Shown piece by piece: positions 1 through 45,664 of a stretch of DNA of 64,000 nucleotides. Position 1 is the stretch's first letter. Each line of letters begins with the position of its first letter. Source of the stretch: Escherichia coli (GTDB lineage Bacteria > Pseudomonadota > Gammaproteobacteria > Enterobacterales > Enterobacteriaceae); NCBI RefSeq assembly GCF_024502345.1, contig NZ_JALDNN010000001.1; one strand, written 5' to 3'. The notes beneath the pieces were generated by a model. That model saw only the letters and a list, made by a program, of their open reading frames with translations, had not been told where the DNA came from and searched no databases. The translations under genes and the position numbers were made by a program.

Positions 1-276
1 AGAGTTGATATCACTACAACAGAAACATGCATGTCATTTGTTTACTTCTCTTTTTACTACAGAAAAATTTATCTATTTTTCTAAACATCAGTGAAATACT
101 CATAAAAGGTAACTATTATGTCTATGCCATTAAGCAATGCCCTTCAGAGTCAAATTATTACAGATGATCACTTCCTTCATCACCCAATAGTCGACAGTGA
201 GTTAATACGTAAATATGAACGTACACGCCTGGATACGGAAAATATCTATCTTCTGCCTCTTGTTCGTGGCAATAAC

Positions 277-1333
277 GGCTTTGTTGAATAAATCAGATTT
301 CGGGTAAGTCTCCCCCGTAGCGGGTTGTGTTTTCAGGCAATACGCACGCTTTCAGGCATACCTGCTTTCGTCATTTTGTTCAGCGCTCGTACCAGGGCCA
401 TAGCCTCTGCAACCTGACCATCGTAGTCACGCAGTGTCAGTGAACCCCCGAACAGCTGTTTTACCCGGTACATCGCCGTTTCCGCTATCGAGCGACGGTT
501 GTAATCTGTTGTCCATTTCCACCGCGCATTACTCCCGGTCATTCGCTGATTAGCCACTGCACGGTTACGGTCTGCATATTCACCGGGCCAGTAACCCGCA
601 CCTTTTCGGGGAGGGATAAGCGCGCTGATTTTCTTACGCCGCAGTTCATCGTGACATAGCCGGGTATCGTAAGCGCCATCGGCGGCGGCTGACCTGATTT
701 TCCGGTGGGTTTGCCGGATTAACCCGGGGAAGGCCTCTGAGTCCGTAACGTTGTTCAGCGACAGGTCAGCGCAGATGATTTCATGTGTTTTACTGTCAAC
801 GGCGAGATGCAGCTTACGCCAGATACGGCGGCGTTCCTGGCCATGCTTTTTGACTTTCCACTCGCCTTCACCGAAGACCTTCAGCCCGGTGGAATCAATT
901 ACCAGGTGTGCGATTTCACCCCGGGTGGGCGTTTTGAAACTGACATTAACCGACTTTGCCCGCCTGCTGACACAGCTGTAATCCGGGCAGCGTAGCGGAA
1001 CGTTCATCAGAGAAAAAATGGAATCAATAAAGCCCTGCGCAGCGCGCAGGGTCAGCCTGAATACGCGTTTAATGACCAGCACAGTCGTGATGGCAAGGTC
1101 AGAATAGCGCTGAGGTCTGCCTCGTGAAGAAGGTGTTGCTGACTCATACCAGGCCTGAATAGCTTCATCATCCAGCCAGAAAGTTATGGAGCCACGGTTG
1201 ATGAGGGCTTTATTGTAGGTGGGCCAGTTGGTGATTTTGAACTTTTGCTTTGCCACGGAACGGTCTGCGTTGTCGGGAAGATACGTGATCTGATCCTTCA
1301 ACTCAGCAAAAGTTCGATTTATTCAACAAAGCC
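277..1333 (-). mobile_element. IS903-group insertion sequence (IS5 family), copy 1, 1057 bp
   Basis: 18-bp terminal inverted repeats GGCTTTGTTGAATAAATC at 277..294 and its reverse complement at 1316..1333; single transposase ORF inside; ends match the IS903 ends known from Tn903. No flanking 9-bp direct repeat (ggcaataac vs cccttgccg). Confidence 0.9.
333..1301 (-). CDS. IS903-type DDE transposase (322 aa)
   Basis: ORF MKDQITYLPDNADRSVAKQKFKITNWPTYNKALINRGS... occupies nearly the whole IS; identical to the protein at 16576..17544. Confidence 0.9.
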   Translation of the reverse strand: MKDQITYLPDNADRSVAKQKFKITNWPTYNKALINRGSITFWLDDEAIQAWYESATPSSRGRPQRYSDLAITTVLVIKRVFRLTLRAAQGFIDSIFSLMNVPLRCPDYSCVSRRAKSVNVSFKTPTRGEIAHLVIDSTGLKVFGEGEWKVKKHGQERRRIWRKLHLAVDSKTHEIICADLSLNNVTDSEAFPGLIRQTHRKIRSAAADGAYDTRLCHDELRRKKISALIPPRKGAGYWPGEYADRNRAVANQRMTGSNARWKWTTDYNRRSIAETAMYRVKQLFGGSLTLRDYDGQVAEAMALVRALNKMTKAGMPESVRIA

Positions 1334-1690
1334 CCTTGCCGCATTACTTAATGCTAATATTGAGTTGGGTAATGACCCAATAATTGGTATAGAAGCCTAT
1401 CCCGGTACCGCGGAGATCCATGCAAAAATGGGATATAAAGTTATCCCGGGTGATGAAAATGCACCACTCAAACGTATGACTCTGCAACCGTCATCTCTTC
1501 CAGAACTGTTTGAATTAAAAAATGGTGAATGGAATTATATTGGTAAATAACTACCAGGAACAATGAGTACTAATATTCAGGTTATACAGATATTTAAACA
1601 ATACCCTGCAATTTACAAAGTAATACTCATTGCGACTTCTTAATTTAAGAAAGCGCAAGGAACGTTTACCCTTGCGCTTATTATAATAAG

Positions 1691-2464
1691 TCAGGCGTCG
1701 ACTTTATCCAGCGGCCATGAATCAAACAGATAGCCATCAAAATAAATATCGTCAACGTTCGAGAATTCCAGCAGACGTTGCTTAACGTTTTCCAGATGCT
1801 GCCACATTGCCAGCTTCGCCGCTCGGGCATCTTTTTTGATTAACGCGGCGAGGATCTGTTTGTGATCGCCCAACCACTCTTTGCGATACAGGCTGTCATC
1901 CAGATGGCTGTGCAACTGGATCCACATTGGATTGTTTTCCCGCCACTGCCAGGACTGACGGAACAGCTCCACCAGCATGCTGTTATGCGTTGCTTCGGCA
2001 ATAGCGAGATGGAACTGCATGTCACCGCTTTCGCTGCTGCCCGGCGCACTGGAAGCCAGTTCACACTCTTCCAGTTGCAATGCCTGACGCATTTTGACGA
2101 TATCTTCGCGGGTAGCCTGCAAAGCGGCAAACTCGGCGATGTTGCTCTCCAATAACTGCCGCGCCTGTAACAGCTCAAAAGGACCGGCATCGTTGCAGAC
2201 GTTGGCATCCGGACTGTCTGTGTTCTGGCTGCCTGAGTTATCAAGAACATAGATACCGGCACCCCGGCGTACTTCCACCAGCCCTTTGATCTCCAGCATG
2301 ATCAGCGCTTCACGTACCACCGTCCGCGTGACATCAAGCATTTCTGCAATTTCACGCTCCGGCGGCAGCCGTTCGCCAGGGTTGTACGGCGTCTTTATGA
2401 TCAGATCGCGGATCATCGCCCCGACTTCCTGGTAAGGTCTTTGCGCAGAGGTGGCAGATTTCAT
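1691..2464 (-). CDS. uxuR: GntR-family repressor of the hexuronate regulon, UxuR (257 aa)
   Basis: Translation MKSATSAQRPYQEVGAMIRDLIIKTPYNPGERLPP... recognised as E. coli UxuR; sits downstream of uxuAB. Confidence 0.9.
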   Translation of the reverse strand: MKSATSAQRPYQEVGAMIRDLIIKTPYNPGERLPPEREIAEMLDVTRTVVREALIMLEIKGLVEVRRGAGIYVLDNSGSQNTDSPDANVCNDAGPFELLQARQLLESNIAEFAALQATREDIVKMRQALQLEECELASSAPGSSESGDMQFHLAIAEATHNSMLVELFRQSWQWRENNPMWIQLHSHLDDSLYRKEWLGDHKQILAALIKKDARAAKLAMWQHLENVKQRLLEFSNVDDIYFDGYLFDSWPLDKVDA

Positions 2465-2500
2465 GGTGTTGTGTCCGTTAGGTGCGGTTAATCAAATTTT

Positions 2501-2540
2501 TGCCGGATGCGGCGTGAACGCCTTATCCGGCCTACAACGG
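2501..2540. repeat. REP element between uxuR and uxuB
   Basis: tgccggatgcggcgtgaacgccttatccggcctac matches the E. coli REP consensus. Confidence 0.6.
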
Positions 2541-2678
2541 GCAATTTTACGGCCCCCGTTAATCTCAAACTATACCATTAGCACTGGAAGTTGGCACGTA
2601 CAGGTGGGCAAAAAAACGAAAACTGGTCAACCAAATATCAGTTTGATTGACCAGTAAGTCTGTAGGGTAATCAGTTAG

Positions 2679-4139
2679 TTACAGCGCAGCCACACACTCG
2701 CGCGCACCGCGTTCGCACAGCTGCTGATATGCCGCCGTCACTGCGCCAACAAAGTCGGCATTCTGCGGCAGATCATCGGCAAAAATACCGCTCAGGCCCA
2801 GCAGCGCTTTCACACGGTCTGCGCCCTGATACTGCGCGTTGATCTTCTGGAACTCCGCCAGCATCGGGTCGACCACGTCAATGGCATTACCCTGCTCATC
2901 CACGCCCTGGGTGTAACGCATCCAGCCAGCCACGCCCAGCGCCAGGTGACGCCAGCTGCCGCCGTTTTGCAGGTGCAGACGCACCGGGTCCAGCAGACGC
3001 TGCGGTAACTTCTGGCTGCCGTCCATCGCAATCTGCCAGGTACGGTGACGCAGAGACGGGTTGCTGAAACGCTCGATCAGCAACGTCGCATAGGCGTTCA
3101 GGTCCGTACCTTCCGGCATCGACAGCGTTGGCGCTTGTTCCTGCATCATCAGGGAGAAGGCCGCTTTGCGATAATCCGGGTTAGTCATGGTGTCGGCAAT
3201 AGTTTCATAGCCGCCGAGGTAACCGAGGTATGCCAGGAAAGAGTGGCTGCCGTTCAGCATACGCAGCTTCATCATTTCGAACGGCACAACGTCTGCAACG
3301 AACTGTGCGCCCACTTTATCCCAGTCCGGACGACCATTAACGAAGTTATCTTCAATCACCCACTGACGGAACGGTTCGCAGGCAATGGCGCACGGGTCGT
3401 AAACACCCAGCTGGTCAGCAATTTCCTGTAAGGTTTCTGGCGTCGCCGCCGGAACGATGCGGTCAACCATGGTGCACGGGAAGGTGACGTTCTCTTCAAT
3501 CCATGCCGCTAGCTGCGCGTCACGCGCCTGAGCCAGCCCCAGTACCGCGACCTTCGCCACATGACCGTTTTCACGCACGTTATCGCAGGACATCACCGTA
3601 AATGCTTTCAGCCCTTTTTCACGACGCAGACGCAAGGCTTCGACGATGTAACCAATCGCGGACTTCGGCGCAGTTGGGTTTTCCAGATCGTGCTTGATCA
3701 GCGGGTTATTGAGATCCAGTTGACCGCTTGCCGCATCAGCGCAGTAGCCTTTTTCCGTGACCGTTAGAGAGACAATCGCCGTTTGCGGACGCGCCATCGC
3801 GTTGAGAATACCTTCGCAGCCATCGATTTCCGGATGCAGCGCTTCTTTCATCGAACCGATAATTTTCAGCTCGGTGCTCTCTGCGCCTTTTTCCGCTACG
3901 GTGTACAGCAGTTGCTGTTTTTTCAGGTTTTCGATCAGCACGCGGTCGTTGCCTGGCATCAGGTTAACTTCGCAGATGCCCCAGTCGCTGTCGGTGCTTT
4001 CCAGCAGATGATGGGTATACAGCGCCTGGTGCGCGCGGTGAAACGCCCCGCAACCGAGATGCACAATGCGTGATTCCAGACGAGAATGATCCCATGACGG
4101 GCGGGCAACCGGCAGATTGCTGTCAACAATAGTAGTCAT
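2679..4139 (-). CDS. uxuB: D-mannonate oxidoreductase UxuB (486 aa)
   Basis: 486-aa ORF immediately downstream of uxuA, same strand; sequence recognised as UxuB. Confidence 0.9.
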   Translation of the reverse strand: MTTIVDSNLPVARPSWDHSRLESRIVHLGCGAFHRAHQALYTHHLLESTDSDWGICEVNLMPGNDRVLIENLKKQQLLYTVAEKGAESTELKIIGSMKEALHPEIDGCEGILNAMARPQTAIVSLTVTEKGYCADAASGQLDLNNPLIKHDLENPTAPKSAIGYIVEALRLRREKGLKAFTVMSCDNVRENGHVAKVAVLGLAQARDAQLAAWIEENVTFPCTMVDRIVPAATPETLQEIADQLGVYDPCAIACEPFRQWVIEDNFVNGRPDWDKVGAQFVADVVPFEMMKLRMLNGSHSFLAYLGYLGGYETIADTMTNPDYRKAAFSLMMQEQAPTLSMPEGTDLNAYATLLIERFSNPSLRHRTWQIAMDGSQKLPQRLLDPVRLHLQNGGSWRHLALGVAGWMRYTQGVDEQGNAIDVVDPMLAEFQKINAQYQGADRVKALLGLSGIFADDLPQNADFVGAVTAAYQQLCERGARECVAAL

Positions 4140-4219
4140 CGTAAACTCCAGAATCCGTCTTCAAAGAGTGACGGCAAGGAAGAAGGAACCGGCACGGCGC
4201 GCAGCCATGCCGGTGGATA

Positions 4220-5404
4220 TTAACGGCTAAAGAAAGCGCGCTGGATCGCCAGTTCGACACCGCGAACTTCGGCCAGGCCTTTCAGACGACCAATTGCGGA
4301 GTAACCTGGGTTGGTTTTCTTCTTCAGGTCGTCCAGCATCTGATGACCGTGGTCCGGACGCATCGGGATCAGGTCTTCTTTGCCTTCCGCTTTACGACGG
4401 TGTTCTTCTTCAACAATCGCTTTCACCACTTCGTACATATCAACGTCACCGTTCAGGTGCGCCGCTTCGTGGAAGGTTTTCGGGTTATCTTCACGCATGG
4501 TGGAGCGCAGATGGGTGAAGTAAATACGCGGACCGAACTGCTTGATCATATCAACCAGATCGTTGTCAGCACGCACGCCGTAGGAACCGGTGCACATGGT
4601 AAAACCGTTTGCCATGCTGTTTACGGTATCAACCATCCACTGCATATCTTCAATGGTGGAAACAATGCGCGGCAGGCCGAGGATCGGGCGCGGCGGATCG
4701 TCCGGGTGAACAGCCATACGCACGCCAACTTCTTCGGCAACCGGAATAATCGCTTTCAGGAAGACGGCAAAGTTTTCGCGCAGTTTGGCTTTGTCGATAT
4801 CTTTGTACAGCTCCAGGTGTTTACGGAACTGGTCGAGGGTGTAGCCTTCTTCCGCGCCCGGAAGACCAGCAATGATGTTACGGGTCAGACGCGCTTTGTC
4901 TTCGTCGCTCATAGTGGCGAAGCGAACAGCAGCCTGAGCAATTTCTTCTTCGGTGTAATCCGCTTCCGCGCCTGGACGTTTCAGGATATGCATTTCGAAT
5001 GCAGCGAATTCGATCTGGTCGAAGCGCAGCGCTTTGGAGCCGTCTGGCAGCACGTATTCGAGGTCAGTACGGGTCCAGTCGAGCACCGGCATGAAGTTGT
5101 AGCACACGGTGCGAATGCCACACTGCGCCAGGTTGCGCAGAGTCTGCTGATAGTTAGCGATCCACTGCTCATAGTTGCCAGTGTGGGTTTTGATATCTTC
5201 GTGAATTGGTACGCTTTCTACGACAGACCACACCAGGCCTGCGTCTTCAACGATCGCCTTGCGTTTGAGGATCTCTTCTACGGACCATACTTCGCCGTTC
5301 GGGATATGGTGCAGCGCGGTAACCACGCCAGTTGCGCCCGCCTGACGGACATCAGCTAAAGAAACCGGATCGTTTGGGCCGTACCAGCGCCAGGTCTGTT
5401 CCAT
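4220..5404 (-). CDS. uxuA: Mannonate dehydratase UxuA (394 aa)
   Basis: ORF contains [28 protein letters not shown]...; start set to the internal ATG at 5404, preceded by gaaagaggaaaaatc (Shine-Dalgarno). Confidence 0.9.
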
Positions 5405-5564
5405 GATTTTTCCTCTTTCACATAGTGGGTTCCACAGCAAAGAGACGCGGAACCCTGGAGTTGTTTAGGTATCCGGATGAACAACCAGACCGCAGCCGTG
5501 GCGTTGCATCGGATGAGATGGCGTATAAGTTCTACCTTTTGGTAAGACATGTCAACCCGAATTC

Positions 5565-5582
5565 TGAAATTGGTTAACCACA
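5565..5582. promoter_or_regulatory. Putative UxuR/ExuR operator upstream of uxuA
   Basis: aaattggttaaccaca contains the perfect palindrome tggttaacca and resembles the AAATTGGT..ACCAATTT hexuronate operator consensus; lies ~160 bp upstream of uxuA. Confidence 0.4.
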
Positions 5583-5741
5583 TCACAAGAATTTCACTCT
5601 CCTGGTTGTTGCTGCAAATTGCAGCAAAAGGTTATCGATGGTTATTGATCAGAGGATGTGACATTCATCGCAACAATGGTTGACCAATTTACATAACATG
5701 TCGCCCAAAATAACAACGGTTCAACCAGGTAAGGTAAAACG

Positions 5742-5947
5742 TTATGCATGTGCTTAACATTCTCTGGGTAGTATTCGGTATCGGCCTGATGCTGGTACTG
5801 ACAAAGACCGCAGGTTCAGACACATTCGCTGCATTAGCAATGCCTCTTAGATAATTTTGACCTGTCAGTAAAAGACACGTTGAAAACCTGGGGTCTGCTG
5901 GAGCTGGTCAACTCCGTGGTTGGGCTGATTATTAGCAAGGTAGCGTA
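5742..5947 (+). pseudogene. gntP: Remnant of gluconate-family permease gene (gntP position): N-terminal ~36 codons plus C-terminal ~30 codons, internal ~1.1 kb missing
   Basis: ORF MHVLNILWVVFGIGLMLVL... hits a stop after 36 codons; a different frame ends ...[25 protein letters not shown] at 5947; both look like the ends of a GntP-type permease divergent from uxuA. Assignment is from recall and synteny. Confidence 0.4.
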
Positions 5948-5949
5948 AA

Positions 5950-6120
5950 AGAACACCAGAGCCTGCCAATGGCAGGCTCTGACTGATGACAAAGTCTAAA
6001 AATGTGCCCGGACAGTCCCCTCGCCCCTCCGGGGAGAGGGTTAGGGTGAGGGGAACAGACCAGCAAAGTGCGCTTTGTTTATGCCAGATGCGACGCTGAC
6101 GCGTCTTATCTGGCCTACAA
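5950..6120. repeat. Intergenic repeat cluster: terminator-like hairpin, GC-rich BoxC-like palindrome, and REP
   Basis: agagcctgccaatggcaggctct hairpin; cccctcgcccctccggggagagggttagggtgagggg; gccagatgcgacgctgacgcgtcttatctggcctac (REP). Confidence 0.5.
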
Positions 6121-6264
6121 AGGGCTAACGTGCAGGTTTTTAGCTTCAGGTAATATTGCGTAACTGCATTAGCAATGCCCTGTGATTTCTTTATTGATAA
6201 ACAAAAGTCGGTGATGCTGCCAACTTACTGATTTAGTGTATGATGGTGTTTTTGAGGTGCTCCA

Positions 6265-6540
6265 GTGGCTTCTGTTTCTATCAGCTGTCCCTCCTGTTCA
6301 GCTACTGACGGGGTGGTGCGTAACGGCAAAAGCACCGCCGGACATCAGCGCTATCTCTGCTCTCACTGCCGTAAAACATGGCAACTGCAGTTCACTTACA
6401 CCGCTTCTCAACCCGGTACGCACCAGAAAATCATTGATATGGCCATGAATGGCGTTGGATGCCGGGCAACCGCCCGCATTATGGGCGTTGGCCTCAACAC
6501 GATTTTCCGCCATTTAAAAAACTCAGGCCGCAGTCGGTAA
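6265..6540 (+). CDS. insA: IS1 InsA (91 aa)
   Basis: [40 protein letters not shown]... recognised as IS1 InsA. Confidence 0.9.
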
Positions 6541-6962
6541 CCTCGCGCATACAGCCGGGCAGTGACGTCATCGTCTGCGCGGAAATGGACGAACAGTGGG
6601 GATACGTCGGGGCTAAATCGCGCCAGCGCTGGCTGTTTTACGCGTATGACAGGCTCCGGAAGACGGTTGTTGCGCACGTATTCGGTGAACGCACTATGGC
6701 GACGCTGGGGCGTCTTATGAGCCTGCTGTCACCCTTTGACGTGGTGATATGGATGACGGATGGCTGGCCGCTGTATGAATCCCGCCTGAAGGGAAAGCTG
6801 CACGTAATCAGCAAGCGATATACGCAGCGAATTGAGCGGCATAACCTGAATCTGAGGCAGCACCTGGCACGGCTGGGACGGAAGTCGCTGTCGTTCTCAA
6901 AATCGGTGGAGCTGCATGACAAAGTCATCGGGCATTATCTGAACATAAAACACTATCAATAA
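6459..6962 (+). CDS. insB: IS1 InsB (167 aa; normally expressed as InsAB' by frameshifting)
   Basis: 167-aa ORF overlapping insA within IS1. Confidence 0.85.
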
Positions 6963-6977
6963 GTTGGAGTCATTACC

Positions 6978-7415
6978 GATTATGTAATCGCCTAAACTCT
7001 TTGATAGCCGACGTTTCAAGCAACATGGATTTGCCTGAATTTAAAGCAGCCATTAATTTATCAAGGGACTGTGCGAACTTACCTGCTGGGTCTGTCGGTG
7101 TATCACGTGTTGTCGAAACAAAATGATAGATGTACATTTCATCTTCATGCTTCGTATTAATGTAAGTAAGATGAATAGCAACCGCATACGCAGGGCCACC
7201 GGACTCACTAAATTCATCACCAACAATTAAGAAATCACCAAAACCATTCATACCCTCTTCTTCATAATTAAGATGAAGATCTGAAAAGAACTCAGAATCG
7301 GGATGGTCAGCATTTCGTCTTTTTTCAAAGCCATCTTTAATTAAAATTCTTTCTGAACCCGAAAAATGTTTTCGATAAGCTTTAGAACAATAGTTAGAAA
7401 TAAATACATGTTTGT
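6978..7415 (-). pseudogene. Partner gene B, C-terminal segment (separated from the N-terminal segment by IS3; 3' end cut by IS1)
   Basis: ORF ...HVFISNYCSKAYRKHFSGSERILIKDGFEKRRNADHPDSEFF...EFRRLHNR is in frame with segment 8674..9082 once IS3 and one TGT copy are removed; the last codon and the stop codon lie inside the IS1 terminus (6973..6977). Confidence 0.7.
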
Positions 7416-7445
7416 TGATCCTACCCACGTAATATGGACACAGAC

Positions 7446-8312
7446 CTAAGCGAGGTTCTGGTTTTCAAATTGTTCCGGACTGAGGCCGCCACACCAACTG
7501 TGCCGCCGCCACCGATTGTAATCACATTCGATATAATTAAACACCGTTGCCCGCATTATTTCCCGGCTGATAAAGTGTTCTCCATGGATACATTCCACTT
7601 TCAGCGAATGAAAGAAGCTTTCCACGCAGGCATTATCGTAGCAGCAACCTTTTGCGCTCATACTTCCACGCAGATTATGCCGCTTCAGTTGCGCCTGATA
7701 ATCTGCTGAACAGTACTGGCCTCCACGGTCCGTGTGAACGATAACGTTCCGGGGCCTCTTACGCCGCCACAGCGCCATCTGCAGGGCATCGCAGGCCAGT
7801 TGCGCCGTCATGCGTGGCGACATTGACCAGCCAATAACGGCACGTGACCACAGGTCAATGACCACTGCCAGATACAGCCAGCCTTCATCTGTACGTAAGT
7901 ACGTGATGTCTCCTGCCCACTTCTGGTTCGGGCCACTGGCGTAAAAATCCTGCTCCAACAGATTTTCTGACACAGGCAGGCCGTGTGCGCGGTAGCTGAC
8001 CGGGCTGAACTTCCGGGAGGCCTTTGCCCTCAGTCCCTGACGGCGCAGGCTTGCCGCCACGGTTTTTACGTTAAAGGGGTAACCCTGAGCACGCAGTTCA
8101 TCCGTCAGGCGTGGGGCACCGTAACGCTGTTTTGACCGGGTAAAAGCCGCGAGGACAACGCTGTCGCAGTGTTGGCGGAACTGCTGACGCGTGCTTATCC
8201 TTGTCCGCCGCTGACACCACGTATACCAGCCGCTGCGGGCCACCCGGAGCACGCGGCACATTGCTTTGATGCTGAACTCAGCCTGATGTTTTTCAATAAA
8301 GACATACTTCAT
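7446..8312 (-). CDS. insF: IS3 transposase OrfB / InsF (288 aa)
   Basis: [36 protein letters not shown]... recognised as IS3 InsF with integrase-core motifs. Confidence 0.9.
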
Positions 8313-8608
8313 TTCAGGCGCTTCGCGAAGTATGTCGCGGCCTTTTGGAGGATAGCCAGCTCTTCATCCCGTTCTGCCAGCTGGCGTTTGAGACGTGCAA
8401 TCTCGGTAGACATCTCCAGTTCACGTTCAGAAGACGTCTGCTGATTTTGCTGTTTACTGCGCCAGTTGTAGAGCTGTGATTCATACAGGCTGAGTTCACG
8501 GGCTGCGGCAGTAACACCGATGCGTTCAGCAAGCTTCAGGGCTTCACTGCGAAATTCAGGCGAATGCTGTTTACGGGGTTTTTTACTGGTTGATACTGTT
8601 TTTGTCAT
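8309..8608 (-). CDS. insE: IS3 OrfA / InsE (99 aa)
   Basis: ORF contains [32 protein letters not shown]...; start set at the MTKTV methionine. Confidence 0.85.
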
Positions 8609-8673
8609 GTGAGTCACCTCTGACTGAGAGTTTACTCACTTAGCCGCGTGTCCACTATTGCTGGGTAAGATCA

Positions 8674-9082
8674 TGTATCCATCCCCAAATCTTTCATGTA
8701 AAGCTTTTGGCTCATCAAACCCGGCATGAATAAAGGTGACTTCATGAACGAGATCTGAATGAAGGAGATTATCAACCTTAGCAATAGTCATACTCTTATC
8801 AAGAAGTATTCCTACAGAAATTTTTTCATACTTACTAAATTCATTTTTTAATAATTGAGCTATACTTTGTCCATCGGTAGAGTGATCACCACATGCCGGA
8901 TTAATGATGACAATAGCCCTACCATCATTTTCTTTTATTGTTTTCAGTGTTCGCTCAAGACCATTGAGAGCCTCTCTCACAGGCTCTATAATTGGAGTAA
9001 AACCTGCCTCAGCCATTACATTAGCAGTGTCTCTAATAGCCAACAGTTCAAATTGTTTCCCACGAAAATAAGGATAATACAT
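8674..9082 (-). pseudogene. Partner gene B, N-terminal segment (136 codons) interrupted by IS3
   Basis: MYYPYFRGKQFELLAIRDTANVMAEAGFTPIIEPVREALNGLERTLK...HERFGDGY then reads into the IS3 end; starts 6 nt after the stop of gene A on the same strand. Confidence 0.7.
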
Positions 9083-9088
9083 AGTTTG

Positions 9089-17920: not shown

Positions 17921-18730
17921 CTAGAAAGAGCCGAGTTCAGAAATCGGTATGTTGAGGAGATGGCTGTTTTTGCTGATAAAGTATTCGAGACTACGGGTTG
18001 TTTCTCCATTCAATGACTTCTCTGCAACAGGCCTGTCTGTATCTTTAATGTGATCTTCTCCTCTGATCTCACTTGTAAAGTCGGGATACAAGACACGAGA
18101 CAGGACCATATTTGAGATTTTTACTTTTTTAAATTTTGCCCAAATCAATAGATCCATCATTGGGATAATATTGTAATCGACAAGTTTTCTTATCTTTGCC
18201 AGTCCAATTTTTTCTGTTTTTACTGGCTCAATTTCATATTCTTTCCTGAGAATGGGTAGCATCGTTTGTAAGGCTGTTATAATTTCTTCATCGCTAGACA
18301 TTCCTAAATCAAATGAAACATACATCTTGCTGCTATTTTGGTTAAGAAAAAAGTCTCTCATAGTTTTTGTTATTGGTTTATTTTTCAACTCTTTTTTGAA
18401 ATCACCATTTTCTTCAAAAAAATCCATGCTAAACATTATTAACTTGTTCTCTAATTTTTTTATATCACCAAAGCTAACCTGAGCAACATGTCTTTGGCCC
18501 TTGCCAAAATGGCCATGATTATTATCTTGTCTGCTTAAAATAGGATTACCTTCAAGGATAGACCTTAAATTTTGATTATCATCTTCCCATCCAAAATTTA
18601 CACTGTCGAAAATCGCTTCTCTAAAGGCAAGCTCGGTATGCAGTTCTTTGATTGTAAGTGATTTTAACTGCTCATAGCTTTCGAGACTAAACCAGATTTT
18701 TAATTCTTCATAAGGGCTTACTACTTTCAT
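17921..18730 (-). CDS. Hypothetical protein (269 aa), AT-rich island cargo between integrase and alpA
   Basis: ORF MKVVSPYEELKIWFSLESYEQLKSLTIKELHTELAFREAIF...; strong Shine-Dalgarno (aggaggg) before the ATG; no recognisable motif. Confidence 0.6.
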   Translation of the reverse strand: MKVVSPYEELKIWFSLESYEQLKSLTIKELHTELAFREAIFDSVNFGWEDDNQNLRSILEGNPILSRQDNNHGHFGKGQRHVAQVSFGDIKKLENKLIMFSMDFFEENGDFKKELKNKPITKTMRDFFLNQNSSKMYVSFDLGMSSDEEIITALQTMLPILRKEYEIEPVKTEKIGLAKIRKLVDYNIIPMMDLLIWAKFKKVKISNMVLSRVLYPDFTSEIRGEDHIKDTDRPVAEKSLNGETTRSLEYFISKNSHLLNIPISELGSF

Positions 18731-18841
18731 TAATCCCTCCTCTGTATTCGAAGCTTGAATGAGTTAACACTGCTTATTTGAATTAATTCTCCCTTAACAA
18801 GGTTGATAAGGGAGAACGATTAATTAACTACTTATTCATAG

Positions 18842-20092
18842 TTAAGTCTTTTTAAAATCAAATGGTGAAACTTGTCGTATTCTAAGGAGGTCAAGGTAAT
18901 CGGCCCACCACTGCAACATAAGCTTTCTCTCATCAAGGTGCTCTGCTTTATGTATGTAGGCAGCACGAACTGAGTTCCGCTCCTGATGGCTCATTTGCCG
19001 TTCAACAGCATCTTTCGACCACAAGCCGGATTCAATCAAGGCACTACAAGCCATAGCCCTGAATCCATGTCCACAGACCTCCACGGTTGTGTCATAGCCC
19101 ATAGACCTCAAAGCCTTGTTTACCGTATTTTCACTCATAGGCTTTCTGAAATCATGGTCGCCAATGAACACAAGTTCATGGTCACCGCTGATCTCTTTAA
19201 TTTCCATCAACACAGCCAATGCCTGACAACTCAAAGGAACAAGGTGTGGAGTTCGCATTTTCGAACCACGGTGCGAATGTTTCACTCCGGGTAATGGCTC
19301 TCGCTCTGCAGGAATAGTCCACATAGCATTCTCTAAATCGATTTCCGACCATCTTGCGAATCTGAGTTCACTGGAACGAATGAAAATGAGCAATGTCAGC
19401 TTTACGGCTAACTTCGTGAGTTTTCTACCCTTGAAACTATCAATTCGTTCTAAAAGTTCTGAGAATCGTTCGAATGGCAAAGCTGGCCTGTGGACTCTTT
19501 TAGCTACCGCAATAGCTCCTGCCATCTCCTGGGCAGGGTTGTAATCTATCAGACCATTCTGGACAGCATATCTCATTACTGCCGTTGTTCTTTGCTGTAA
19601 TCGGGAAGCAACTTCCAGTCGCCCAGAAGCTTCAACAGCTTTGATAGGGGCAAGAAGATCTCTGGTATTAAGTTCGGATATTTTTCTTTTACCAATAGCA
19701 GTAAAGAGACCATCTTCCATGCTTTTTAGAACTCTTTCGCTGTGGGAATTTGACCATTTCCTTTTACAGGCAGTATGCCAGTCTCTCGCAACAGCTTCGA
19801 ATGTCAGGGCTTCGCTTTGCTCAATCTTATCTGCTTTTTTCTTCTCAGAAGGGTCGATACCATCAGATACCAACTTTTTGGCTTCATCTCGCTTCCTGCG
19901 GGCTTCACCAAGAGAGACCATTGGATAAACACCTAATGCTAAAACTTTCTGCTTGCCCCCGAAACGGTATTGGAGTCGCCAGTATTTTGAACCATTGGGG
20001 TTGATCAGCAGGTGCATACCCTGCCCATCTGTGAGTTTGAAAGGTTTGTCGGAGGGCTTGGTAGTCCTAACTTTGATATCAGTGAGTGCCAT
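18842..20092 (-). CDS. P4-like tyrosine integrase (416 aa)
   Basis: MALTDIKVRTTKPSDKPFKLTDGQGMHLLINPNGSKYWRLQYRFGGKQKVLALGVYP... is the typical P4-family integrase N-terminus, with catalytic-domain R...H..R...Y pattern toward the C-terminus; adjacent to the 3' end of leuX. Confidence 0.85.
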   Translation of the reverse strand: MALTDIKVRTTKPSDKPFKLTDGQGMHLLINPNGSKYWRLQYRFGGKQKVLALGVYPMVSLGEARRKRDEAKKLVSDGIDPSEKKKADKIEQSEALTFEAVARDWHTACKRKWSNSHSERVLKSMEDGLFTAIGKRKISELNTRDLLAPIKAVEASGRLEVASRLQQRTTAVMRYAVQNGLIDYNPAQEMAGAIAVAKRVHRPALPFERFSELLERIDSFKGRKLTKLAVKLTLLIFIRSSELRFARWSEIDLENAMWTIPAEREPLPGVKHSHRGSKMRTPHLVPLSCQALAVLMEIKEISGDHELVFIGDHDFRKPMSENTVNKALRSMGYDTTVEVCGHGFRAMACSALIESGLWSKDAVERQMSHQERNSVRAAYIHKAEHLDERKLMLQWWADYLDLLRIRQVSPFDFKKT

Positions 20093-20281
20093 CAGTTGAT
20101 ACCTCCGCTGTTGGTATCAAAATCAATCGAACCGAAGATACCACCAGTTATACCATCATTCGTTGGTATATGTGGATAGAAGTAAGTAGACGTGGACAGA
20201 CTAAGAAAAGCCAAAACTCTGCTTAACTTACTGTTTTTGTGGACTAAAGTAGACGTTAGTAGACTTGAAAAAAACTTTTTA

Positions 20282-20366
20282 TGGTGCCGAAGGCCGGACT
20301 CGAACCGGCACGTATTTCTACGGTTGATTTTGAATCAACTGCGTCTACCGATTTCGCCACTTCGGC
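20282..20366 (-). tRNA. leuX: tRNA-Leu (anticodon CAA), leuX
   Basis: Reverse complement reads GCCGAAGTGGCGAAATCGGTAGACGCAGTTGATTCAAAATCAACCGTAGAAATACGTGCCGGTTCGAGTCCGGCCTTCGGCACCA (85 nt with CCA). Confidence 0.95.
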
Positions 20367-20561
20367 ACTGAAGAGGTATGCGGAAAACGTTGTGGATTAT
20401 ACCTGTCGCACGCCACCATGCAAGCGCCAGCTTGCTCGCACCTCGCTAAGTGCTGAAATTTTCAGCATTGCATACAGCGATGTGTAACCTTTGTCACACT
20501 CCAGGCACCCCGCCCTGCCATGCTCTACACTTCCCAGACAACACCAGAGAAGGACCAAAAA

Positions 20562-21581
20562 ATGTCGATGATAAAAAGCTATGCCGCAAAAGAAGCGGGT
20601 GGAGAACTGGAAGTTTATGAGTACGATCCCGGTGAACTGAAGCCACAAGATGTTGAAGTGCAGGTGGATTACTGCGGGATCTGTCATTCCGATCTGTCAA
20701 TGATCGATAACGAATGGGGATTTTCACAATATCCACTGGTTGCCGGGCATGAGGTGATTGGGCGCGTGGTGGCGCTCGGGAGCGCCGCGCAGGATAAAGG
20801 TTTGCAGGTCGGTCAGCGTGTCGGGATTGGCTGGACGGCGCGTAGCTGCGGGCATTGCGATGCCTGTATTAGCGGTAATCAGATCAACTGTGAGCAAGGT
20901 GCGGTGCCGACGATTATGAATCGCGGCGGTTTTGCCGAGAAGTTGCGTGCAGACTGGCAATGGGTGATTCCACTGCCAGAAAATATTGATATCGAGTCCG
21001 CCGGGCCGCTGCTGTGTGGTGGTATCACGGTCTTTAAACCACTGTTGATGCACCATGTCACTGCTACCAGCCGCGTTGGGGTAATTGGTATTGGCGGGCT
21101 GGGGCATATCGCTATAAAACTTCTGCACGCAATGGGATGCGAGGTGACAGCCTTTAGTTCGAATCCGGCGAAAGAGCAGGAAGTACTGGCGATGGGTGCC
21201 GATAAAGTGGTGAATAGCCGCGATCCGCAGGCACTGAAAACTCTGGCGGGGCAGTTTGATCTCATTATCAATACTGTGAACGTCAGCCTCGACTGGCAGC
21301 CTTATTTTGAGGCGCTGACCTATGGCGGTAATTTCCATACGGTCGGTGCGGTACTCACGCCGCTGTCTGTTCCGGCCTTTACGTTAATTGCGGGCGACCG
21401 CAGCGTCTCTGGTTCAGCAACCGGCACACCTTATGAGCTGCGTAAGCTGATGCGCTTTGCCGCCCGCAGCAAGGTTGCGCCGACCACCGAACTGTTCCCG
21501 ATGTCGAAAATAAACGACGCCATCCAGCATGTACGCGATGGTAAAGCGCGCTACCGCGTGGTCCTGAAAGCCGACTTCTGA
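20562..21581 (+). CDS. ahr: NADPH-dependent aldehyde reductase Ahr/YjgB (339 aa)
   Basis: [45 protein letters not shown]... zinc-ADH signature; start set at the internal ATG at 20562. Confidence 0.9.
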
Positions 21582-21710
21582 TCCCTTTGCCGGGTGCCTG
21601 TCGCCCGGCACTTAAATCTCTTTGGAAGGCGTCTCGCAATCTGCTGAATTTAGCGGTGAAGAGTGCGCAGCCGTTGCCTATACTCCAGGCAGGAAACTGG
21701 AGGATATCTC

Positions 21711-23213
21711 ATGAGCGAACCCCTGTTAATTGCCCGCACGCCGGACACAGAACTGTTTTTAATGCCGGGAATGGCTAACCGTCACGGGCTGATTACTGGC
21801 GCAACGGGGACGGGTAAAACCGTTACGCTGCAAAAACTGGCAGAGTCATTGTCGGAAATCGGCGTGCCGGTGTTTATGGCTGATGTGAAAGGCGATCTGA
21901 CCGGCATCGCGCAGGCAGGAACGGCATCGGAAAAACTGCTCGCAAGGCTTAAAAATATCGGCGTAAATGACTGGCAACCGCATGCCAATCCGGTGGTGAT
22001 GTGGGATATCTTTGGCGAGAAAGGCCATCCGGTGCGGGCGACGGTTTCAGACCTGGGGCCGCTGTTGCTGGCGCGTTTGTTGAATCTCAACGATGTGCAA
22101 TCTGGCGTCCTGAATATCATCTTCCGCATTGCTGACGATCAGGGGCTGTTACTGCTCGACTTTAAAGATTTGCGGGCGATTACCCAGTACATCGGCGATA
22201 ACGCCAAATCTTTCCAGAATCAGTACGGTAATATCAGTAGCGCATCGGTTGGTGCCATCCAGCGCGGATTACTGTCGCTGGAGCAACAAGGTGCGGCGCA
22301 TTTCTTTGGCGAGCCGATGCTGGATATCAAAGACTGGATGCGCACCGATGCCAACGGTAAAGGCGTTATCAATATCCTCAGCGCCGAGAAACTTTATCAG
22401 ATGCCGAAACTGTACGCCGCCAGCCTGCTGTGGATGCTTTCAGAGTTGTATGAACAATTGCCGGAAGCGGGCGATCTGGAGAAACCAAAACTGGTGTTTT
22501 TCTTCGACGAGGCACATCTGCTGTTTAACGATGCCCCGCAGGTACTGCTGGATAAGATTGAGCAGGTGATAAGGCTTATTCGCTCAAAAGGCGTGGGCGT
22601 CTGGTTCGTTTCGCAAAACCCGTCTGATATTCCAGATAATGTGCTCGGCCAGCTCGGTAATCGCGTTCAACACGCTTTGCGGGCTTTTACGCCAAAAGAT
22701 CAGAAAGCAGTGAAGGCAGCGGCGCAAACCATGCGGGCCAATCCGGCATTTGATACGGAAAAGGCAATCCAGGAACTGGGGACCGGCGAGGCGTTAATCT
22801 CGTTTCTCGATGCAAAAGGAAGTCCTTCTGTGGTGGAACGGGCGATGGTGATTGCGCCTTGTTCGCGGATGGGGCCGGTGACGGAAGATGAGCGTAATGG
22901 CTTGATTAATCACTCTCCGGTGTATGGCAAGTACGAGGATGACGTGGACCGGGAATCCGCCTATGAGATGTTGCAAAAAGGCGTACAGGCAAGCACCGAG
23001 CAGCAAAATAATCCTGCCGTGAAAAGGAAAGAGGTAGCGGTAGATGACGGCATTCTTGGTGGATTGAAGGATATTTTGTTTGGCACTACCGGACCACGCG
23101 GCGGGAAGAAAGATGGTGTTGTGCAAACAATGGCGAAAAGCGCCGCCCGCCAGGTGACGAATCAGATTGTGCGTGGAATGTTGGGGAGTTTGCTGGGGGG
23201 GAGAAAAAGGTAA
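21711..23213 (+). CDS. yjgR: HerA-like ATPase, DUF853-family protein YjgR (500 aa)
   Basis: [39 protein letters not shown]... with Walker A motif GTGKT; start at the ATG after ggagg. Confidence 0.85.
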
Positions 23214-23233
23214 GCCAGGTGCGATTTGTCTTT

Positions 23234-23270
23234 GCCTGATGCGACGCTGGCGCGTCTTATCATGCCTACA
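23234..23270. repeat. REP element
   Basis: gcctgatgcgacgctggcgcgtcttatcatgcctac. Confidence 0.55.
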
Positions 23271-23373
23271 CCACTGCAATACATTGGATTTTCATGATTT
23301 TTCAGGCATGAATGAAGCACACTTTGCTAATAATAATAAAGGGAGCTTTCGCTCCCTTTATTCGTTCATTCGG

Positions 23374-24456
23374 TTACGATTTTCTCATTAACAGCCACAG
23401 GCTGATTAAGAAGAAGCTGGCGCTTGGCAACAGTGCGCCAATGATCGGCGGGATGCCGTAAACCAACGTCAGCGGACCGAAGATCTGGTCCAGTACGTAG
23501 AAGACAAAACCGAAGCTGATACCGGTGACCACACGCACGCCCATCGGTACGCTACGCAGTGGGCCAAAGATGAACGACAGCGCCATCAGCATCATCACCG
23601 CCACGGATAGCGGCTGGAAGATTTTGCTCCACATGTTGAGCTGATAACGTCCGGCATCCTGACCGCTCGACTTCAGATACTTCACGTAGTTGTGCAAACC
23701 GCTGATTGAGAGTGCATCCGGGTCCAGCGCCACCACGCCCAGTTTGTCTGGCGTGAGGTTGGTTTTCCAGGTGCCGCTCACCGTCTGCGAACCGGTAATC
23801 TGTTTCGGATTGGTCAGATCAGATTCATCAACCTGCGACAGACGCCAGACTTTATGTTCCGGGTCAAACTTCGCAGTAGCGGCATAGCGTACGGATTGCA
23901 GACGACGATTTTCGTTAAAGGCATAAATGCTGATGCCACCTAACTCTTCGTCACCTTTAACCCGCTCAATGTAAACGAAGTTGTTGCCATCTTTCGCCCA
24001 TAAGCCTTGCTGGGTAGAGAGCAACGAGCCGCCGTACATCGCCTGCGCACGGTAGTTACGCGCCATCTGCTCGCCCTGCGGCGCGACCCATTCACCAATC
24101 GCCATCGTCAGCAAGACCAGCGGAATGGCGGTTTTCATCACCGACAGCGCAACCTGCATACGGGTGAAACCAGAAGCCTGCATCACCACCAGTTCGCTGC
24201 GCTGCGCCAGCATCCCAAGACCAAGCAACGCCCCAAGCAGAGCCGCCATCGGGAAGAATATTTGCACATCTTTCGGCACGCTCAGCAAGGTATACATTCC
24301 TGCGCCTAACGCGTCGTAACTCCCCTGCCCGGCTTTTTTCAGCTGATCGACAAATTTGATAATGCCCGACAGCGACACCAGCATGAACAGCGTCATCATG
24401 ATGGTGGTGAAAATAGTTTTACCGATATAGCGGTCAAGTACGCCAAAAGGTTGCAT
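23374..24456 (-). CDS. lptG: LPS export permease LptG
   Basis: MQPFGVLDRYIGKTIFTTIMMTLFMLVSLSGIIKFVDQLKK... recognised as LptG; overlaps the lptF stop. Confidence 0.9.
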   Translation of the reverse strand: MQPFGVLDRYIGKTIFTTIMMTLFMLVSLSGIIKFVDQLKKAGQGSYDALGAGMYTLLSVPKDVQIFFPMAALLGALLGLGMLAQRSELVVMQASGFTRMQVALSVMKTAIPLVLLTMAIGEWVAPQGEQMARNYRAQAMYGGSLLSTQQGLWAKDGNNFVYIERVKGDEELGGISIYAFNENRRLQSVRYAATAKFDPEHKVWRLSQVDESDLTNPKQITGSQTVSGTWKTNLTPDKLGVVALDPDALSISGLHNYVKYLKSSGQDAGRYQLNMWSKIFQPLSVAVMMLMALSFIFGPLRSVPMGVRVVTGISFGFVFYVLDQIFGPLTLVYGIPPIIGALLPSASFFLISLWLLMRKS

Positions 24457-25556
24457 CACACCGCTCCTTTACGCGAAAAACTGGCGCGCAGGCGGCGGAC
24501 CGGCACGGTGTCCCAAAGGTTGAGAACAATCGCCAAAGCCAGATAAATCAGGTTAACGGTCCACATCCACAGCGTCGGGTCCAGCTTACCTTTACCGCCG
24601 TTCGATTTCAGGGAGGTCTGGATCAGGAAGAACAACAGATACAGCAGCATGGCTGGCAGCATCGATAGTACGCGCCCCTGACGCGGGTTAACCACGCTCA
24701 GCGGTACGACCATAAGTGCCATCATAAACACGGTGAACACCAACGTGATACGCCAGTTCAGTTCTGCGCGAGCACGATCGGTGTCAGTGTTCCACAATGT
24801 GCGCATGTCCATCTGGTCGGTATCGTTCGGGTCGAGCGCCACCGCCTGGTGACCAATGATCGCCTGATAATCCTGGAAATCCGTAATGCGGAAATCACGT
24901 AACAGTGCAGTGCCTTCGAAGCGCGTTCCCTGGTTGAGAGTGACGACCTGGGAGCCGTCGCGCAGCTGGGTTAAATGTCCGGAATCGGCCACCACCACAG
25001 AAGGAAGTGCATTACCTTTTGGTCGAATTTGCGCGAGGAACACATCTTTGAAATCGCTGCCGTCAACGCTTTCGATGAACAGCACCGAACTGCCATTAGT
25101 CGCTTGCTGGAATTGCCCTTGCGCCAGCGCCGCCATGCCAGGGTTCGCTTTCGCTTCTGCTAACACTTCATCCTGATGACGCGATGACCACGGTCCCGCC
25201 CACATCACGTTAACCGCCGCGACGATTGCCGTGAATACCGCAAGGATCATTGCCGCTTTCACCAGAACCGCTTTGCTCAGGCCGCAGGCATGCATTACCG
25301 TAATTTCACTTTCGGTATACAGTTTGCCCAGCGTCATCAGCAGCCCGAGGAACAGGCTTAATGGCAGGATAAGCTGCGCCATTTCCGGCACGCCCAACCC
25401 GAGAAGGGAGAGCACCAGATTCGCCGGAATATCGCCGTCAACCGCTGCGCCGAGGATCCTCACTAACTTTTGACAGAAGAAGATCAAAAGCAAGATGAAG
25501 AGTATCGCCAGCTGGCTTTTGAGCGTCTCCCGCACCAGATATCTTATGATTATCAC
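24456..25556 (-). CDS. lptF: LPS export permease LptF (366 aa)
   Basis: MIIIRYLVRETLKSQLAILFILLLIFFCQKLVRILGAAVDGDIPANL... recognised as LptF. Confidence 0.9.
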   Translation of the reverse strand: MIIIRYLVRETLKSQLAILFILLLIFFCQKLVRILGAAVDGDIPANLVLSLLGLGVPEMAQLILPLSLFLGLLMTLGKLYTESEITVMHACGLSKAVLVKAAMILAVFTAIVAAVNVMWAGPWSSRHQDEVLAEAKANPGMAALAQGQFQQATNGSSVLFIESVDGSDFKDVFLAQIRPKGNALPSVVVADSGHLTQLRDGSQVVTLNQGTRFEGTALLRDFRITDFQDYQAIIGHQAVALDPNDTDQMDMRTLWNTDTDRARAELNWRITLVFTVFMMALMVVPLSVVNPRQGRVLSMLPAMLLYLLFFLIQTSLKSNGGKGKLDPTLWMWTVNLIYLALAIVLNLWDTVPVRRLRASFSRKGAV

Positions 25557-25819
25557 TTTAAATACGCCCGTAAAAACTCGTCTTTTGCAGGATTTTAGCT
25601 TGTTTCATGGCTTAAACGTCATTTATTCTCTTGAGTCGTCGAAATCGTCGCTAAGATAATTATACTCAACGGATTCACCTCTCAGATTTTGTTCTGACGT
25701 GCCAATGCCGTAATAACGTTAAGATTAACACGAAGTCATCGCAACAGCGGACATGAGTTACGAAAGCTTGCAATTCTATCTGTAGCCACCGCCGTTGTCT
25801 TTAAGATTCAGGAGCGTAG

Positions 25820-27334
<1,515 letters not shown>

Positions 27335-27344
27335 TTGCGTCAGG

Positions 27345-27655
<311 letters not shown>

Positions 27656-27687
27656 CGTATTTAAATCCACCACAAGAAGCCCCATAT

Positions 27688-28131
27688 ATGAAAAACGCAA
27701 CGTTCTACCTTCTGGACAATGACACCACCGTCGATGGCTTAAGCGCCGTTGAGCAGCTGGTGTGTGAAATTGCCGCAGAACGTTGGCGCAGCGGTAAGCG
27801 CGTGCTCATCGCCTGTGAAGATGAAAAGCAGGCTTACCGGCTGGATGAAGCCCTGTGGGCGCGTCCGGCAGAAAGCTTTGTTCCGCATAATTTAGCGGGA
27901 GAAGGACCGCGCGGCGGTGCGCCGGTGGAGATCGCCTGGCCGCAAAAACGCAGCAGCAGCCCGCGCGATATATTGATTAGTCTGCGAACAAGCTTTGCAG
28001 ATTTTGCCACCGCTTTCACAGAAGTGGTAGACTTCGTTCCTTATGAAGATTCTCTGAAACAACTGGCGCGCGAACGCTATAAAGCCTACCGCGTGGCTGG
28101 TTTCAACCTGAATACGGCAACCTGGAAATAA
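27688..28131 (+). CDS. holC: DNA polymerase III chi subunit HolC (147 aa)
   Basis: [57 protein letters not shown]... recognised as HolC. Confidence 0.9.
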
Positions 28132-30986: not shown

Positions 30987-31010
30987 TCAAAACACAGTGA
31001 TGAAAACGAA

Positions 31011-31037
31011 GGCCGGAGCATGCTCCGGCCTTTTTTA
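31011..31037 (+). terminator. Rho-independent terminator after valS
   Basis: Hairpin ggccggagcatgctccggcc followed by tttttt. Confidence 0.65.
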
Positions 31038-31041
31038 TCTC

Positions 31042-44220: not shown

Positions 44221-44480
44221 AAGGAGTCCCTCCGCACTGTCTGAAACAGTACAGAAATGTCTTCAGGCGTGGCGAAGCCTTACCTGAAGGTAATAAAGCT
44301 GAGCAGGGACGTTAAAACGTCACGGCCTTACGCATCCGGTAACGCCGTGAAAAGACGGGCTTACCGGAAAAGTTTTAATCTCCGTCGAGGGAGAGGCGTG
44401 GGATCAGGTTCCATATAACCTCCGGTAAGTGAAAAAAGCGCCGCAAATAATAAGGAGAATCCAATAATATTCGTAGCATC
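44221..44480 (-). promoter_or_regulatory. mgtA 5' leader (Mg2+/proline-responsive attenuation region)
   Basis: Long untranslated region between the mgtL peptide and mgtA start; assignment from established knowledge of the mgtA leader. Confidence 0.55.
44361..44414 (-). CDS. mgtL: mgtA leader peptide MgtL (17 aa)
   Basis: The last 17 codons of ORF 44361..44627 read [17 protein letters not shown], the proline-rich leader peptide. Confidence 0.7.
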
Positions 44481-44598
44481 TATGGCGATATAATACCTGC
44501 TGGCAACTAAACCAACGATAAACCAGACTTTACCCATTGCTGAATGCACGGGTAAAGTTAGGCTCAAATAATTAAACAACACGTTACGGGACAACAGG

Positions 44599-45546: not shown

Positions 45547-45664
45547 TCGTTTCCTGAACGATAAATTGTGATCTTCGCTGCGTTTCGGGAACGTTCCCGT
45601 TTTTAAATTTTTCCGCGCAATATATTCTGCAACCAACCAAAAATGTCATCTGCCATGGGGCTTT

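Follow-up and report, generated by a model that had tools for sequence, protein, structure and literature searches.

Organization of the locus

The window, that is, the whole stretch of DNA analysed here, comprises 64,000 nucleotides of contig NZ_JALDNN010000001.1 from Escherichia coli assembly GCF_024502345.1, and the entire interval from leuX to uxuA lies inside it (Table 1). On the left side of the locus, the products UxuA, UxuB, and UxuR are full length with more than 99% identity to K-12, which agrees with the initial annotation that uxuAB-uxuR are retained. Alignment to K-12 MG1655 and ATCC 8739 revealed collinearity from uxuR through uxuB, uxuA, the gntP region, and the following spacer, and on into the final 19 nt of fimH. 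IS1 starts directly where this fimH tail stops, and gntP is untouched by IS1. The initial annotation had placed gntP next to the IS1 junction; however, the true left breakpoint is 19 nt from the end of fimH, and the normal spacer lies in between. The tail, which reads GACTTTTGTTTATCAATAA as the reverse complement, is the sole fim sequence remaining in the window; the rest of fimH (ACAAAAGTCACGCC) is absent from it.

Table 1. Features between uxuR and leuX in the window
Feature	Position	Strand	Remarks
uxuR	1691..2464	-	Intact, 257 aa, Cys134 allele
uxuB	2679..4139	-	Intact, 486 aa
uxuA	4220..5404	-	Intact, 394 aa, 99.5% identical to K-12
gntP remnant	5744..5948	+	Delimited by alignment to K-12 gntP
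gntP nt 1-58	5744..5801		
Diverged 54-nt stretch in gntP remnant	5802..5855		Reduced identity to gntP codons ~397-413
gntP 3' end	5856..5948		Last 105 nt minus a 12-nt deletion, out of frame
fimH-gntP intergenic spacer	5949..6190	.	Normal, 242 nt, with repeat elements; collinear with K-12
fimH, last 19 nt	6191..6209	-	G ACT TTT GTT TAT CAA TAA; collinear with K-12 and ATCC 8739 to the IS1 end
IS1	6210..6977	+	Complete, 768 bp; at the probable deletion junction; no flanking 9-bp duplication
IS1 insA frame	6265..6540		
IS1 insB' frame	6459..6962		
Gene B ORF as read into IS1	6973..7428	-	
Distal sce7725-family fragment (gene B)	6978..7415	-	Lacks the last 89 nt (29 residues and stop)
IS3	7416..8673	-	1,258 bp, in the sce7725 gene; 3-bp duplication TGT, simple insertion
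Proximal (N-terminal) sce7725-family fragment	8674..9082	-	
sce7726-family gene	9089..9889	-	Intact upstream partner in the sce7726-sce7725-RES module
P4-type integrase of the leuX island	18842..20092	-	Near the leuX-proximal end
leuX, tRNA-Leu(CAA)	20282..20366	-	Attachment site, far boundary of the island; Rfam

On the right side, IS1 abuts a gene fragment (gene B) that matches internal sequence of intact sce7725-family genes at 100% identity, beginning 89 nt before their stop codon. The truncation of its 3' end was read correctly from the start: the minus-strand ORF ends with ...CAT AAT CGG TAA (...HNR*), with IS1 contributing the complete stop codon as well as two of the three bases for Arg. 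Against the sce7725 family model NF033831 (curated cut-off, 60 bits), the two fragments separated by IS3 scored 177.8 and 126 bits, with alignments to model positions 141-287 and 1-133 of 312, respectively. An intact protein of this family has 310 aa, and the copy in the window is split by IS3, lacks 29 C-terminal residues, and has no RES partner. Where the island is intact, sce7726 is followed by sce7725 and then by a gene for a RES-domain NAD+ phosphorylase, and this RES gene is absent from the window. PADLOC gave no model match for the sce7725 protein, and the papers that mention the family give its name in lists only. An exact-protein look-up of a 1,062-aa autotransporter returned no record, and an Rfam scan of positions 1..21000 detected leuX only.

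The IS1 element at the junction is bounded by the termini GGTGATGCTGCCAACTTACTGAT and ATCAATAAGTTGGAGTCATTACC, the second of which reads GGTAATGACTCCAACTTATTGAT as the reverse complement. InsA matched positions 1-81 of the IS1 transposase model NF033558 and the InsB' frame matched positions 76-199; jointly, the two frames are intact and span positions 1-199, and the A6C frameshift motif TTTAAAAAAC is present. Its identity to four annotated IS1 copies ranges from 97.7 to 99.3%, and to a fifth it is 92.4%. The left (ACAAAAGTC) and right (GATTATGTA) flanking 9-mers do not match, and the 9-bp target site duplication is thus absent. As controls, two simple IS1 insertions, in strain 2017.17.03CC and in L010, were flanked by perfect 9-bp duplications (AGCAATGCC and TGGTCGGCG, respectively), and none of three IS1 copies at obvious deletion junctions had a target duplication. 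An absent duplication is expected if a rearrangement came after the insertion, and is no argument against the identity of the element as IS1.

Nature of the gntP remnant

The ~447-aa GntP permease is absent, and only residues 1-20 and 414-439 of K-12 GntP align to the remnant, in different reading frames. The initial annotation had described pieces of ~36 N-terminal and ~30 C-terminal codons. Both do align to the GntP termini; however, only the first 19-20 of the 36 codons represent the GntP N-terminus, the remainder aligning poorly to codons ~397-413, and the C-terminal piece consists of 30 codons and a stop in the other frame. The main gap in gntP, of ~1.1 kb, lies between two copies of the 11-nt repeat TGCTGGTACTG, and the remnant would have arisen by an internal deletion of that size between these repeats, plus small indels. 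An origin of the diverged 54 nt from a foreign gntP homologue was unsupported: a degenerate search pattern encoding the peptide of this stretch gave 0 matches in 100,044 species-representative genomes.

The initial annotation ascribed the reduction of gntP to the IS1 junction, and this part did not hold. The 810-nt stretch at 5400..6209 was found with full coverage and 99.3% identity in 846 of the 5,426 complete E. coli genomes (~16%). Among the listed carriers of the remnant (e.g., O26, O103, and ATCC 8739), fimH is annotated alongside, and genomes with the exact UxuB allele of the window, which occurs in 136 collection blocks, have the gntP remnant and a complete fim operon together. Because the same remnant occurs in those 846 genomes and because the spacer and the fimH tail are intact between it and IS1, the remnant is separate from the IS1 event; to judge by these alignments, it is an older, common species-level allele, independent of the IS1 deletion. 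It should not be taken as a product of neighbouring IS elements, a correction of wider use.

Extent of the deletion

Using blastn and tblastn, we detected neither fim nor nanC in the 64-kb window apart from the 19-nt fimH tail, which bears out the earlier claim that the fim operon is missing by synteny between leuX and uxuA. Likewise, no gntP was present elsewhere in the window. In the fim-positive strain AHS8C65RI, the order is uxuRBA, gntP, fimH to fimB, nanC, nanM, defence islands, integrase, RES, and sce7725, which puts the breakpoints at a distance of 36,001 bp. The island of the window has its closest relative in L016 (99.9% identity over window positions 8674..16543); there, the breakpoints are separated by 8,431 bp, and the interval between them holds RES, IS1, nanC, nanM, truncated fimD, fimF, fimG, and fimH. 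The size of the loss is therefore bracketed between 8.4 and 36 kb, by two relatives only.

The flanks of IS1 are distant from each other in relatives, they lack a matching target duplication, and fim is gone from the window. Taken together, these observations point to an IS1-bounded deletion, as the initial annotation had proposed from the mismatched 9-mers. We estimate a probability of about 85% that IS1 unites the extreme 3' end of fimH with the interior of sce7725, which are not neighbours in fim-positive E. coli, by a genuine deletion. Judged from the compared gene orders, the deleted DNA would comprise fimH minus 19 nt, fimG to fimB, the nanC/nanM region, the island cargo beyond, the RES gene, and the last 29 codons of sce7725. 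The initial annotation had recognized neither that gene B is an IS3-split member of the sce7725 family nor that the RES-domain gene and nanC/nanM would have been deleted as well.

Junctions in other assemblies and order of events

The right junction was recovered on six independent short contigs (five from ENA metagenome assemblies and one from an NCBI genome), which were 100% identical across both the IS3/sce7725 and the sce7725/IS1 boundaries. The left junction between the fimH tail and IS1 was found on a contig of GCA_024502245.1, with 99.98% identity over 5,138 nt (window positions 1333..6470) and with yjiC intact. Such short-read contigs cover each junction singly, and the two are linked through one IS1 in the window alone. 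Neither junction occurred among 5,426 complete RefSeq E. coli genomes, and none of these had IS1 as a simple insertion at one or the other breakpoint, as a progenitor would. The left-junction 36-mer had 0 matches in JGI metagenome contigs, a result that is uninformative, since the matches of this lineage came from ENA, NCBI, and Logan.

A metagenome contig (L026) differs from the window by 1 mismatch in 4,877 nt from uxuR to the fimH tail, and continues into fimH, fimG, fimF, fimD, fimC, fimI, and fimA. Because this contig is near-identical yet fim positive, it suggests that the deletion is recent and that fim was not primarily absent. Besides, a 282-aa protein from an sce7725 gene truncated by IS1 but free of IS3 is recorded in SRR21938201; the contig L036, too short to reveal a progenitor, has the IS1 junction without IS3. 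The gntP remnant would be the earliest lesion, followed by the IS1-bounded deletion and later, in either order, by IS3 in sce7725 and an IS903-type insertion plus deletion in yjiC; this order is suggested by the gntP remnant in fim-positive relatives, the IS1-truncated product without IS3, and the left junction with intact yjiC. The window contains two IS903-type copies, which are inverted relative to each other and both without target duplications. We rejected an inversion between these two copies, given that the flanking sequence runs collinearly with K-12 and the 9-mers at the ends show no cross-match. The fusion ORF of yjiC and the IS903-type element had no record in an exact-protein look-up.

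Mechanism of the deletion

IS1 promotes adjacent deletions. A copy of IS1 would first insert at one of the breakpoints; intramolecular replicative transposition would then produce an adjacent deletion that retains the element and removes the DNA up to the new target, with no matching duplication left. We consider this the likeliest mechanism, with a confidence somewhat above even, and the stepwise route is the one we infer. The product is also what homologous recombination between two directly oriented IS1 copies, one at the 3' end of fimH and one in sce7725, would leave after excision of the interval, namely, one hybrid IS1 with mismatched flanks. Loss of target duplications by adjacent deletion or by IS-IS recombination has been documented, and the end products of the two are indistinguishable (PMC11708052). 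Recombination is a plausible though less probable explanation: other strains often carry IS1 in this interval, in and beside fimH, and L016 has an IS1 just downstream of RES in the same relative orientation. However, that copy is a different variant (92.4% identical) at a different position, no genome was found with IS1 at either exact site, and a comparison with five IS1 copies, which is a weak test, revealed no obvious two-parent mosaic. Adjacent deletion is favoured because it takes fewer events, two as against the three (two insertions and a crossover) that recombination needs. All routes other than these two are, taken together, unlikely.

Among these other routes, the arrival of IS1 might have been coupled to the deletion in one step, leaving no duplication, if the element inserted into a double-strand break while the deletion formed. 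Such a route has been suggested for an IS903-group element in E. coli C (PMC11708052), and it would accord with the lack of target duplications at both IS903-type copies in the window and with the failure to find a simple-insertion intermediate. An unsampled intermediate is weak evidence, however, and we regard the one-step route as quite improbable. An assembly artefact, in which two IS1 copies were collapsed, the intervening DNA was skipped, and fim is really present, has to be weighed since IS1 is a multi-copy repeat and the independent short-read contigs break within it, so that the junctions are confirmed only separately. Against this, two simple insertions would show 9-bp duplications and complementary junctions, and the FimH-IS1 fusion predicted for a simple-insertion progenitor had no record in an exact-protein look-up; neither insertion occurs in any of the complete genomes. 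Furthermore, the contiguous window traverses three other IS copies cleanly and each junction recurs in several samples, which makes an artefact very improbable. Finally, a single IS1-associated event that also hollowed out gntP is suggested by proximity only, the remnant being 261 nt from IS1, and is hardly credible: the spacer and fimH tail in between are intact and K-12 collinear, the 846 genomes with the remnant retain fimH and have no IS1 there, and near-identical fim-positive relatives already have the remnant.

Comparison with known fim losses

For all groups of Shigella and EIEC, independent losses of the fim cluster of the leuX island, by deletion or by IS disruption, have been described (Bravo et al. 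2015, PMC4374849). Those alleles resemble that of the window in that the same interval from leuX to gntP/uxuABR is affected, fim is lost wholly or partly or is broken by IS elements, and IS1 is a frequent agent, whereas their breakpoints and surviving cargo are different. In the window, the yjhATS/nan and fec genes are absent and uxuABR is retained, and no structure in PMC4374849 matches this arrangement. An origin of the window from Shigella was unsupported, as the 64 kb contain no more than four complete IS copies, every one of them within the first 18 kb.

Within E. coli, DX6 and many others have IS1 within fimH joined to leuX-island DNA, ATCC 8739 has an IS3 within fimG that borders an integrase remnant and runs to a leuX remnant, strain 2017.17.03CC has an IS1 that connects fimG with the nanC side, and L016 has IS1 between the RES gene and nanC. 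All of these, like the window, carry an IS element without target duplication where a truncated fim gene meets leuX-island or nan DNA. The window, however, has its own breakpoints, and more of fimH has been lost, 19 nt being left. Strain 2017.17.03CC has a further IS1 in the fimH-gntP spacer, in the same orientation as that of the window, ~30 nt from the position of the left junction, and in a gntP-remnant background. Unlike the IS1 in the window, that copy is flanked by its perfect 9-bp duplication and fimH is intact, and it thus offers a picture of an insertion at this site without a subsequent deletion.

The deletions described in PMC11708052 are similar in that the IS element is kept, flanking DNA is lost, and no duplication remains, and they proceed stepwise and can be extended over time. 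They differ in having time-resolved progenitors and in involving mostly IS150, whereas the element in the window is IS1 and its progenitor is unsampled. Across the 5,426 complete E. coli genomes, 4,737 had at least 80% of the region from fimA to fimH in one place, 623 had part only, and 66 had no match. Total loss of fim is therefore uncommon (~1%) in complete E. coli genomes, yet not new. The window adds an allele, not catalogued before, to a well-known class of IS-mediated deletions, and reveals no new mechanism or system.

Implications

The gene content predicts a strain without type 1 fimbriae and without RES-module proteins at this locus. Such a strain would show no mannose-sensitive adhesion and would offer no FimH type for typing. 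In addition, the fructuronate transporter would be absent, and catabolism of glucuronate and fructuronate via uxuAB would be kept.

The loss of fim and sce7726-sce7725-RES might be adaptive and not neutral in a host-circulating lineage of gut E. coli, whose junctions are shared by several independent assemblies of genomes and metagenomes. That the loss was adaptive, or that the arrival of IS1 was coupled to the deletion with no duplication formed, is improbable. If the loss were adaptive, the locus may stand near the beginning of the kind of convergent loss of surface structures, driven by IS elements, that Shigella and EIEC are known for, with IS3 in sce7725 and the IS903-type element in yjiC as later lesions. 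The allele should be of use in the annotation and phenotyping of this lineage, and it adds one more independent case of IS-mediated erosion of the leuX-fim region.

Insertion sequences around the IS1 junction

The IS1 junction, at which the fim operon was lost, is not the only trace of transposition in this part of the window. An IS3 element lies inside the sce7725-family gene of the leuX island and is flanked by a 3-bp duplication (TGT). Because the SRR21938201 assembly has the IS1 junction but no IS3 at this site, we infer that IS3 inserted after the IS1 junction had formed, into an sce7725 gene that was already truncated. A simple IS1 insertion was also found in strain 2017.17.03CC (L004, NZ_AP027829.1), on the same gntP-remnant background as in the window. 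It lies about 30 nt from the position of the window's left junction, in the identical orientation, with a 9-bp duplication and an intact fimH. The AT-rich fimH 3' end and the adjoining spacer look like a recurrent IS1 target.

Two IS903-type elements are further present, and the 9-bp target duplication was absent at both copies. The first stands in place of 454 bp of yjiC, so that YjiC residues 54 to 189 are missing in the window; yjiC is intact in the close relatives L026 (a fim-positive metagenome contig), L032, and L033. The possibility that the segment between the two copies had been inverted was rejected.

Locations of features
Feature	Location	Details
IS903-type (IS5-family) elements	277..1333 and 16544..17600	Inverted relative to each other; 1,057 bp each, 100% identical
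uxuR	1691..2464
16-mer CTGCATTAGCAATGCC	5829..5844 and 6164..6179	Spacing, 335 nt
sce7726-sce7725-RES module	6978..9889; L001, 18885..21651
IS3	7416..8673	3-bp duplication
Decayed island cargo	11500..13254
Core genes right of leuX	21000..45900
IS1 in L004	L004, 9481..10248	9-bp duplication

Allelic variation in the flanking genes

The 16-mer CTGCATTAGCAATGCC is present twice in the window, once where the gntP remnant is diverged and once in the fimH-gntP spacer. Since this two-hit outcome was obtained in 0 of 100 shuffles and the K-12 gntP counterpart of the first site is similar, not identical, the repeat may reflect a brief stretch of templated change or gene conversion within the gntP remnant allele, which is also present in ATCC 8739. 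Residue 134 of UxuR is Cys in the window and Arg in K-12, in ATCC 8739, and in those near-identical relatives that were compared; the Cys-134 allele is recorded on a variety of backgrounds, in 69 collection blocks.

Among 5,426 complete E. coli genomes, the best match to the core genes right of leuX was only 98.6% identical overall. The divergence is patchy, with ahr-yjgR and part of valS at 95.9 to 96.9% identity versus 99.8% elsewhere, a pattern that would mean either that few complete genomes represent the lineage or that the lineage carries imported segments.

Cargo of the leuX island

The island cargo is decayed: a 267-aa hsdM fragment, whose alignment is limited to positions 102 to 336 of a 932-aa methyltransferase model, adjoins an IS3-family integrase-core fragment. 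The sce7725 protein had no match in Pfam or PADLOC, the sce7726 protein is listed by 725 blocks of the collection, and the literature searched held no characterization of the module to which they belong. This three-gene module, sce7726-sce7725-RES (RES, NAD+ phosphorylase), has a wide distribution among E. coli leuX islands, where it stands amid defence genes, and could represent a toxin or defence system that has yet to be studied.
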